Assembly: GCA_043820025.1 (NCBI GenBank) | Contig: JBDRED010000028.1 | Span: 12,274-76,273, forward strand | Reading direction: 5' to 3' | Source: Elusimicrobiota bacterium | GTDB taxonomy: Bacteria > RUG730 > JBDRED01 | Length of the DNA stretch: 64,000 nt | In this document: positions 7,733-34,048 of the stretch, piece by piece | How the letters are laid out: the number at the start of each line of letters is the position of its first letter | How positions within the stretch are numbered: position 1 is the first letter of the stretch | Position numbers and translations under genes: made by a program | Notes under the pieces: model-generated | Told to the model about the DNA's origin: nothing | The model's input: the letters and a program-made list of their open reading frames with translations, nothing else | Database searches by the model: none

Positions 7733-7787
7733 GAATAAATTATATATAAATTTGCCTTTAAAAACAATAAAATAATACAAAGGCAGT

Positions 7788-7954
7788 GGGATTAGTCAAC
7801 ACATGTGACACCCCAGGTAAACATAGCCGCTGAGTAGAATGAATTTAGAGTTGCCCATAAATGGGTTTTTGTTTGGATGTTAATTTACCATGGATTTCTG
7901 ATTTGCAGGAATGACAAAGAGAAAGCAGGGTGTCACATGTATTGCAGCATTCCC
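7788..7954. mobile_element. MITE-like non-coding element, small member (167 bp)
   Basis: Terminal inverted repeats GGGATTAGTCAACACATGTGACACCCC (7788-7814) and GGGTGTCACATGTATTGCAGCATTCCC (7928-7954). The termini and the internal TAGAATGAATTTA block match the 516-bp element at 32931-33446. Confidence 0.6.
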
Positions 7955-7959
7955 AAAAA

Positions 7960-32576: not shown

Positions 32577-32631
32577 ATCATTCCTCGCAAAATAATTCTA
32601 CAGGAGGGAATATAGAAAAGCAAATAAAAAA

Positions 32632-32703
32632 TACGCCATGTGGGATTTGAACCTACAACCTACTGATTAAGAGTCAGTTGCTCTACCATTGAGCTAATGG
32701 CGC
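32632..32703 (-). tRNA. tRNA-Lys (anticodon CUU)
   Basis: Hand-folded cloverleaf from GCGCCAT TA GCTC AATGGTA GAGC A ACTGA CTCTTAA TCAGT AGGTT GTAGG TTCAAAT CCCAC ATGGCGT A. There is a G1-U72 pair and one A-C mismatch in the T stem. No CCA is encoded. Confidence 0.85.
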
Positions 32704-32717
32704 ATAATATCAATCCA

Positions 32718-32791
<74 letters not shown>

Positions 32792-32930
32792 ACTGTATTA
32801 ACAAAAAAGATAAAATTGCCTTAAATATCAGATAATTCGATAAATGCGCATATATTTTGTTTTGAGTTTAAAATGTTACACATTTTTGACGTAAAAGTAA
32901 AGATTTTTCTACTTTTTCAACTTTTTTCTT

Positions 32931-33446
32931 GGGAATACTGCAATACATGCGACACCCCCGCTGTAAAATAGCTAAACCGAGTAGAGATAATATTCTCAGG
33001 ACCGCTTGAAATCCCCGCCGAGGATATTCTGCGCTTGGTGAAAATTCTCGCTCGTCCCGACATTAGTCGGGACACCATGGCCGCTCGAATTTTCAACATC
33101 CCGCGAATATTATCTCTACTCAGCTTAATAGAATGAATTTAATATGTTTCTCCGCTTCATAGCGGAGTGGTTTAGAAGCGCTGCGCAGCAAAAAATAAAG
33201 CGCGCGGTGTGTGAGCCCTGCCGCATCTTTTATCTAGTCCCAACTTTAGTTGGGGCGTAAATTATTCATATTTAACGATATCTCCGGCAGGGCGAGTTCA
33301 AGAGCAGCGCATTTTTTGCAAGTTAGCAATTCTTAATCACGCAGCTCCGAAGCGGAGAAAAATATTAAATTCAAATATTGATTTTTAGTTTAAGTATAAT
33401 ATTAACTATTTTACAGCGGGGGTGCCGCATGTATTATATCATTCCC
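32931..33446. mobile_element. 516-bp non-coding composite element: MITE-like termini enclosing two nested long inverted repeats
   Basis: The outer ~41-nt arms are 32931-32971 and 33406-33446 (GGGAATACTGCAATACATGCGACACCCCCGCTGTAAAATAG). An inner perfect 17-bp IR pairs 32980-32996 with 33104-33120. A second inner 23-bp IR with 1 mismatch pairs 33136-33158 with 33349-33371. GC-rich hairpins lie inside. The termini match the element at 7788-7954. Confidence 0.6.
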
Positions 33447-33544
33447 ATTTCTGCTTTTTCTTCTTTGCCCATAATACATTTCACTTGCCGAACAGAATAT
33501 TTATTATATATAATCATTCATTAATAAACTAAGCGAGGTAATAT

Positions 33545-34048
33545 ATGGGATTAGTAAACTTGTTTAAAAACATCTTGATTGATAAAGCAATCAAGGAAAA
33601 AATAGCATTCCTTAAAACCTGCCCTATTTTCTCAAGGCTTGAAGATTTTGAGATGCGTAAAGTATACAACATAATGTTTCAAAAAACTTATCCTGCCAAT
33701 GATTTAATATTTGAGGAAGGCAAGATTGGTAAAGCGCTTTTTTTTATTCTCAGCGGCAATATTTCAATACTAAAAAAGAGAACTGACAATAAAGAAAAAG
33801 AAATAGCTAAACTCCACGCAGGCGATTTTTTCGGAGAAATGGCGTTATTAGAAGAGCTTCCAAGATCAGCGTCTGTAAAAACCAATGAACCAACCAAGGT
33901 CTATTTAATTTATAAATCAAATTTTGATGAGTTGATATCATCTAATCCAAAAATCGGAATAAAGATTATTCTTAATATCGTAAAAATATTAAGCTCGAGA
34001 TTGCGAAATACAAGCGCTTCAATAACAAGTGAGACCAAAGGAGACTAG
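33545..34048 (+). CDS. cyclic-nucleotide-binding domain protein (stand-alone cNMP domain)
   Basis: 167 aa. Contains FEEGKIGKALFFILSG and GDFFGEMALLEELPRSASV. Confidence 0.8.
   Translation: MGLVNLFKNILIDKAIKEKIAFLKTCPIFSRLEDFEMRKVYNIMFQKTYPANDLIFEEGKIGKALFFILSGNISILKKRTDNKEKEIAKLHAGDFFGEMALLEELPRSASVKTNEPTKVYLIYKSNFDELISSNPKIGIKIILNIVKILSSRLRNTSASITSETKGD

Follow-up and report, generated by a model that had tools for sequence, protein, structure and literature searches.

The 516-bp block that stands beside two tRNA genes in the window, by which we mean the whole 64,000-nt stretch analysed here on contig C28, is with a probability of roughly 0.9 a decayed MITE, a non-autonomous derivative of a clade of IS481-like insertion sequences (ISs). 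It belongs to a multicopy family within a single genome (1.44 Mb in 49 contigs, 37% GC, assembly 81%-complete), whose members carry target-site duplications (TSDs) and have ends homologous to those of an intact IS, the transposase of which is absent from the assembly. As a type of element the block is ordinary; the register in which its family is inserted is unusual and statistically strong.

The block occupies a non-coding interval (32793-33544) flanked by the minus-strand tRNA-Arg/tRNA-Lys/dxs genes and by a plus-strand gene with a cNMP-binding domain. The preliminary description, made from the letters alone, had seen here a GC-enriched block closed by inverted termini of ~41 nt, with two inner inverted repeats and several minor stems and with no transposase in the window. 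The GC content is indeed 43% against 37% genome-wide, and neither the window nor its contig holds a transposase. The outer repeats extend to 46 nt and are 87% complementary (Table 1). The perfect 17-bp inner repeat, shifted by one base from the coordinates first given, is the core (32979-32995 / 33105-33121) of the arms of a palindrome that we call module A (32973-33001 / 33099-33127; 29 nt, 86%), and the second inner repeat widens into the arms of module B (33134-33196 / 33311-33373; 63 nt, 78%). The hairpins GTCCCGAC..GTCGGGAC, GCCCTGCCG/CGGCAGGGC and CCCAAC..GTTGGG are all present. Taken jointly, these repeats go far beyond chance expectation. The sole ORF of the block is 60 aa long and is interrupted by stops in the remaining copies of the element.

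Table 1. Features of the 516-bp copy, of its smaller relative in the window and of the ISs compared with them. Positions without a prefix refer to the window; C and L prefixes denote contigs of this genome and contigs or loci of other sources, respectively.
Feature	Location	Strand	Details
Complete MITE copy	32930..33447	.	516-518 bp; T-GGGAAT ... ATTCCC-A
Left terminal inverted repeat	32930..32975	+	IRL type, TGGGAATACTGCAATACATGCGACACCCCCGCTGTAAAATAGCTAA; aligned to the IRL of the IS481-like IS (L163 and L164)
Right terminal inverted repeat	33402..33447	-	Outermost 14 nt IRL-like; subterminal TAAAATAGTTAATATTATAC of IRR type
Module A	32973..33127	.	155-bp imperfect palindrome, three-way hairpin; also at three further loci of the genome, there lacking the outer ends
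Module B	33134..33373	.	240-bp imperfect palindrome; further copies on contigs C40, C11, C24
Direct repeat, left copy	32906..32921	+	Degenerate, T-rich, TTTCTACTTTTTCAAC; probable old 16-bp target duplication
Direct repeat, right copy	33448..33463	+	TTTCTGCTTTTTCTTC; begins 1 nt past the terminus
Predicted promoter of tRNA-Arg/tRNA-Lys/dxs	32873..32901	-	-35 TTTACT (32901-32896), 17-nt spacer, -10 TAACAT (32878-32873); 8/12
Outward promoter-like site in right terminus	33410..33437	+	TTTACA, 16-nt spacer, TATTAT; 10/12; faces the cNMP-binding-domain gene starting at 33545
tRNA-Arg(UCG), context	32717..32792	-	
tRNA-Lys(CUU), context	32631..32704	-	
Small family member	7787..7955	.	IRR-type end on the left, IRL-type on the right; carries module C, in common with C40
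Promoter-like site at small member	7739..7767	-	20 nt outside the IRR end; TTGTTT, 17-nt spacer, TATAAT
IS481-like IS, intact	L163:7610-9078		1,469 bp; GCA_042563805.1
IS1202-family IS, pieces	C12:1-1406, C49:1-173, C13:1-165, C21:81256-81396, C46:1-140, C48:1-140, C47:7570-7709		Relatives L159-L162

Searches with blastn and nhmmer for further copies, as the preliminary description had advised, reveal a multicopy element whose pieces lie at ~17 loci of the genome with the modules variously combined. We count some 14-17 whole or fragmentary members of this gene-less repeat family (~14 elements that possess ends, and in addition solo modules), all of them intergenic. Outer ends enclose module A at C45, C22 and C20, modules B and C at C40, and module C in the 167-bp copy of the window (7788-7954). 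A minimal copy of 128 bp lies at C34, truncated copies lie at C39a, C39b, C46, C25 and C9, and a solo end at C47; module A occurs without outer ends at C27, C16 and C48, and module B at the contig ends of C11 and C24. Two types of terminus recur, GGGAATnCTGCAATACATGYGACACCC and GGGATTAGTCAAYACATGYGRCACCCC. As had been noticed at the outset, the termini of the 516-bp and 167-bp elements match (92.6% over 27 nt) and the two elements share TAGAATGAATTTA. The C40 copy is 99% identical to the C24/C11 copies, which points to a recent copying event. The 516-bp copy itself is old, with diverged ends and a degenerate target duplication, and is probably an immobile relic. Module A was ruled out as a coding sequence, most of its copies having stops in all frames. 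Just past the truncated copies at C9 and C39, the segments C9:50940-50985 and C39:21975-22030 resemble one another (ATTCG(G)CCTGCGCG...GGTAATTT(T)ATTGA) and could represent a further repeat module or the terminal parts of paralogous genes. No orthologous empty site was found; the flanking proteins are absent from the records, and the nearest Dxs is 68% identical and shows no synteny. The nearest Dxs proteins bear Elusimicrobiota and Endomicrobia names, the closest being in GCA_042563805.1.

Clean direct repeats abut the termini in four copies: AAAAAGAACCAAGAAT at C45 (16 bp), AACATTTTGTAAAAGGG at C40 (17 bp), CTGTCTAATAATA(T)AAAT at C20 (16-17 bp with one indel, 13 bp of them perfect) and AAATATAATAAAAAAGC at C39a (16-17 bp). 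Of 2,000 random controls, none or no more than one equalled these matches. At the 516-bp copy the repeat is degenerate (TTTCTACTTTTTC / TTTCTGCTTTTTC, 13/16; 13 nt with one mismatch, null 0.0035) and its left copy is offset by about 8-12 nt from the terminus, the 8 intervening nucleotides being 32922-32929. No significant duplication was detected at the small copy, C22 or C34.

Direct repeats of 15-17 bp occur in the ISTde1 subgroup of IS1202, and of ~15 bp in some IS481 members (PMC10045372; bioRxiv 10.1101/2022.12.17.520857); the long duplication of the MITEs therefore directed our search to the IS481/IS1202 group. On a contig of GCA_042563805.1, fetched via relatives of P0122 (the transposase of an IS1202-family IS resident in the window's genome), we met an intact IS481-like IS, L163, directly upstream of an IS1202-family IS. 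Its left end, TGGGAATGCTACAATAGATGTGACACCCCCTTGTAAAAT, and its right end read inward, AGGGATTGGTCAAGACATGTGACACCCCCCTATAAAT, reproduce in the alignment both MITE end types over 40-46 nt and partly in their subterminal portions too, the IRL type being TGGGAATGCTnCAATA-ATGTGACACCCC and the IRR type AGGGATTrGTCAAnACATGTGACACCCC. By blastn, positions 1-42 and 1424-1469 of this IS are 83-93% identical to MITE ends, and the left terminus of the 516-bp copy matches L163:7611-7649 at 85% over 40 nt. The IRR of the relative L164, AGGGATTAGTCAATACAT, is identical to that of the MITEs across 18 nt. The L163 IS is flanked by a perfect 16-bp TSD, AGGATTCAATGTGTAG, and L166 by one of 15 bp, a length of 15-16 bp that agrees with the 16-17 bp seen across the MITE family, the 516-bp copy having its degenerate version. 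The proposed search for a transposase flanked by the same termini thus did yield an intact IS, in a related genome, whose transposase is missing from the present assembly: tblastn with this transposase, P0243, found no trace of its clade in the 81%-complete genome of the window. MITE mobility here is accordingly either historical or reliant on an unassembled copy.

The L163 IS encodes a 113-aa ORF and the 359-aa P0243, which aligns with the IS481 model NF033577 over its full length (positions 2-282 of 284, E = 1e-34) and combines N-terminal HTH_28/HTH_32 domains, a weak LZ_Tnp_IS481 match and a DDE core with a DNGSEY motif. The ends of the IS recur in relatives with 58-77% identity. With these domains and a parental TSD of 15-16 bp, the element resembles the long-TSD members of IS481 (ISMac4, ISA0963-1 and the eukaryotic IS481EU with 15-16-bp TSDs; PMC10045372). 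It departs from IS481 in that P0243 scores 120 bits against a curated cut-off of 224, and in its termini, which read TGGGA / AGGGA in L163-L166 and in the MITEs whereas IS481-family ends typically start with TGT (bioRxiv 10.1101/2022.12.17.520857). Two further departures are an additional conserved ORF and a stop codon formed across the junction between IS and flank. The ORF, lysine-rich and 106-113 aa long, precedes the transposase (L163:7602-7943, L164:743-1063, L185:60-392), contains the motif YE(S/G)(S/T)N(I/V)W.TR.S.YW.W.R.KEW and has no Pfam match. The transposase ORF crosses the right inverted repeat (L163:9075-9080; right ends of L164 and L166), so that it takes the two outermost flanking bases to complete its stop codon (CCC T|AG, CCC T|AA); in L165 it runs into the flank and reaches 368 aa. 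The clade counts ~2,200 proteins in metagenomes at E <= 1e-10; a search of 72,556 plasmid records yielded a single match, weak and partial.

The genome of the window does hold an IS1202-family (ISTde1-like) IS, identified with NF033594 (357 bits; P0122, 430 aa) and present in about four copies that break contigs C12, C13, C21 and C46-C49. Profile searches of the genome with Pfam rve (PF00665) and DDE_Tnp_1 (PF01609) returned nothing, the rve model missing this transposase. The ends of the IS read TGTCAAGGCAAAG..., and left and right flanks matched across contigs give duplications of 16 bp (GCTTTTTTTATTAAAT) and 15 bp (TGAAAACTCGCTGAT). At C12:1345-1406 it can be seen that each IS end holds two tandem copies of a ~27-nt motif (GCAAAG..AAATGTTAATTTT), probably two binding sites of the transposase, and it is inside these tandem motifs that the assembler broke the contigs. 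On the IRL side, at 7/7 sites, the TSD is directly adjoined by a TTGnnn hexamer, followed after a 17-nt spacer by a -10-like hexamer (for example TTGACT-17-TATAAA and TTGAAC-17-TATAAT), and the tip of the IS reads ...CCTTGACA; the same pattern occurs on 0/8 IRR-side flanks. In the related genome, the IS481-like IS has entered precisely at the left junction of an IS1202-family IS (L163:7560-9200), its 16-bp duplication consisting of 11 nt of host flank and the initial 5 nt (TGTAG) of that IS.

A comparable register accompanies the MITEs. We read outward from 21 MITE ends and scored matches to a sigma-70-like consensus. At 10/21 ends, representing 10/14 elements and mostly of the IRR type, a match of at least 9/12 has its -35 starting 19-23 nt outside the terminus, an offset that equals the duplication plus 3-5 nt, and at 8/21 ends an exact TATAAT begins 41-44 nt outside. 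The corresponding rates for promoter match and exact TATAAT are 1.5% and 0.5% at any position, 3.0% and 1.1% at AT-rich positions, and 4.8% and 1.7% at AT-rich positions 90-200 nt upstream of ORF starts and read towards the gene. Binomial p values range from 1e-8 to 1e-13, with about 1e-8 against the strict control. A co-oriented gene follows 50-280 nt away for 9 of the 11 predicted promoters that result when the weaker 8/12 site at the 516-bp copy is included. There it is the old duplication to which the register refers, the predicted -35 (32901-32896) standing 4 nt from the left direct-repeat copy (from 32906), and the TTTACT/TAACAT site probably serves as promoter for tRNA-Arg/tRNA-Lys/dxs. 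The same register recurs at the IS copies L163, L164 and L166; it is absent at C45, C9 and C46, as well as in the more remote ISs of L165 and L185-187. A distant IS481-like relative, P0325, was seen on three contigs that look chimeric, with neither register nor TSD. At the small element, only 7 nt separate the -10 from the ATG (7732) of a response-regulator gene on the minus strand, a spacing that suggests a leaderless mRNA. We lean towards the view that MITE integration is aimed at promoters; since the duplicated target ends 3-5 bp upstream of the -35 hexamer, the core promoter would survive the insertion.

Two other accounts of how the family arose and moved were weighed against derivation from an IS481-like parent. 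The resident IS1202-family IS is the sole transposase source of this kind detected in the assembly, its transposase is related to those of IS481 (bioRxiv 10.1101/2022.12.17.520857; PMC10045372), and its 15-16-bp duplications have the same unusual length as those of the MITEs, which thus show the 15-17-bp direct repeats of the ISTde1 subgroup. That it mobilised the MITEs is nevertheless improbable, given that its ends (TGTCAAGGCAAAGCGAAAATGTTAATTT) have merely scattered bases in common with theirs, that the MITE ends lack the IS1202-type inverted repeat (TGT..., with a conserved block near position 20) and fit another IS almost base for base, the distinction between IRL and IRR included, and that its promoter register differs, its TSD abutting the -35 where that of the MITEs is followed by a further 3-5 nt. 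We rejected it as the parent on its unlike end sequences despite the matching TSD length. As for the interior, the preliminary description regarded the small element as the large one minus its inner domains and favoured nested insertions, in which modules A and B would be independent mobile palindromes that entered a simple MITE. Module A does occur alone, without outer ends, at C27, C16 and C48 (73-83% identity), with extended palindromic ends of its own at C27; module B occurs in two contexts, the large element and C40; and the difference between B-less and B-bearing copies is bounded on both sides by AATAT, possibly a short duplication. Module A is indeed absent from the small copy, as described, but its nesting is not supported. 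The small copy reads ...GCTGAGTAGAATGAATTTAGAG, and A-bearing copies read ...GAGTAGAGATAATATT...CTCAGCTTAATAGAATGAATTTAATAT; it retains the initial 7-8 nt of the left arm of module A (GAGTAGA|ATGAATTTA), joined at a TAGA microhomology, and this remnant marks a microhomology deletion from an A-bearing element rather than an empty host. Similar scars, a pattern of loss and not of empty sites, are found elsewhere: C34 keeps one end of an A arm, C25 and C39b have internal deletions of A, C39a ends ...GTTGAAAATTC|CCAAATAT with module A joined via ATTC to the last bases of the terminus and the duplication intact, and at C47 two copies of GCAGTATAAA bracket a single complete end together with the microhomology, GGG. 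Truncated copies thus still hold terminal nucleotides and duplication, and we infer that they are internal deletions of once-complete insertions, the direction of these events included. Neither module is accompanied, in any of its copies, by a convincing target duplication or a partner transposase. At module B the sequences fit an insertion as readily as a deletion, the AATAT boundary being equally compatible with a 5-nt microhomology deletion. Overall, we regard a nest of independent palindromes as unlikely.

The preliminary description had also offered a large structured ncRNA; it, or a family of such RNAs, would be encoded upstream of the tRNA genes and might be co-transcribed with them. 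Folding is very strong, with z-scores against shuffles of -13.6 on the plus strand and -18.3 on the minus strand. In 5/6 copies of module A one strand folds better by 7-18 kcal/mol, and module B favours the opposite strand in 2/2; double compensatory changes affect 5/30 predicted pairs of module A, the right half of which is nearly invariant. Yet the copies are kin by descent, so that G-U asymmetry and co-variation of the arms can be inherited or result from repair of the palindrome, and descent together with within-palindrome repair can explain the strand bias, the compensatory changes and the invariant half; module A may nonetheless act as an RNA or DNA hairpin. Moreover, in 3/5 copies of module A both neighbouring genes are encoded opposite to the strand that folds better. 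The Rfam check that had been recommended returns, with Rfam 15, two tRNAs alone at gathering score, and at E <= 10 the 781-nt gap gives weak, scattered matches at chance level; the block thus matches no curated family. Among 40 other genomes, six of them from its phylum, none contains a significant relative of the 516-bp sequence, and of 61 genomes searched with the module A covariance model R1 (164 positions, 46 pairs) this one alone gives hits, against 0/60 others. Metagenome scans with patterns for the IRR end and for the conserved half of module A gave 0 matches each, a loose pattern, CAAYACATGYGRCACCC, produced 115 unrelated single matches in genome contigs, and one match in viral contigs falls within coding-like sequence and was taken as chance. 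No source of modules A and B was found outside this genome, and the DNA comparison with 40 relatives, the covariance search of 60 genomes and the metagenome scans disclosed no cross-genome conservation with covariation. The copies bear target duplications, transposon ends and truncations, and such duplicated and truncated copies are what a transposon leaves. The tRNA adjacency is no sign of an RNA gene either, the 516-bp copy lying beside tRNA genes because the family lands just upstream of predicted promoters. A large structured ncRNA is therefore highly improbable, and the reading that the preliminary description itself preferred, a mobile non-autonomous MITE family, is borne out by the duplications, the multicopy status and the ends shared with a parent IS.

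Based on the above data, we propose that an IS481-like DDE transposase, acting in trans, would bind and cleave the MITE at its ends of ~28-46 bp, and that a staggered cut of 15-17 bp at integration would produce the 16-17-bp duplication. In the interior, the long imperfect palindromes A, B and C take the place of the transposase gene, and their loss and reshuffling by microhomology deletion and recombination would result in the size series of 128-516 bp. The family resembles the IS-derived MITEs known from bacteria (MITEAba12, Correia/NEMIS and the Tn3-derived TIMEs) in being small and transposase-free, with terminal repeats of the parent-IS type, a TSD, numerous dispersed intergenic copies and internal deletion derivatives. 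It differs from them by its duplication of 16-17 bp, where most described bacterial MITEs have 2-9 bp, by keeping distinct IRL and IRR identities, by palindromic modules of 150-240 bp that are unrelated to the parent IS, and by its fixed insertion register upstream of promoters. With the ISTde1 subgroup of IS1202 (15-17-bp direct repeats; bioRxiv 10.1101/2022.12.17.520857; PMC10132070), a member of which resides in the genome, it has the duplication length in common, whereas its ends are not of the IS1202 type and P0243 matches the IS1202 model in the HTH region alone (33 bits). [quoted passage not shown]

It is tempting, though still tentative, to suppose that the whole long-TSD branch of IS481/IS1202 transposases homes to sigma-70 promoters, the MITE/IS481-like target lying 3-5 bp upstream of the -35 and the ISTde1-like target directly against it on the IRL side. 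The transposase might read the -35 sequence, bound RNA polymerase or the sigma factor, and promoter homing would then parallel, in bacteria, the behaviour of Ty3 at Pol III start sites; it would also, if true, extend the XerC/D targeting of ISAba32. What is read may instead be the AT-rich DNA upstream.

The identity of the block as a MITE removes one candidate large ncRNA, and the family accounts for a number of odd repeats between genes and of contig breaks in the genome. What is useful here is the link of an unusual duplication of 15-17 bp to an uncurated, abundant IS481-like clade and to a fixed promoter register. Should this register reflect true targeting, it would constitute a safe-harbour strategy for transposons in compact genomes, offer a simple sequence rule for promoter prediction in uncultured bacteria and provide a candidate for promoter-directed insertion tools. 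Promoter homing, if true, would account for the persistence of these elements in a small, gene-dense genome whose genes they leave intact, and the palindromic cargo (A, B) would be delivered systematically upstream of promoters, where it could affect regulation.
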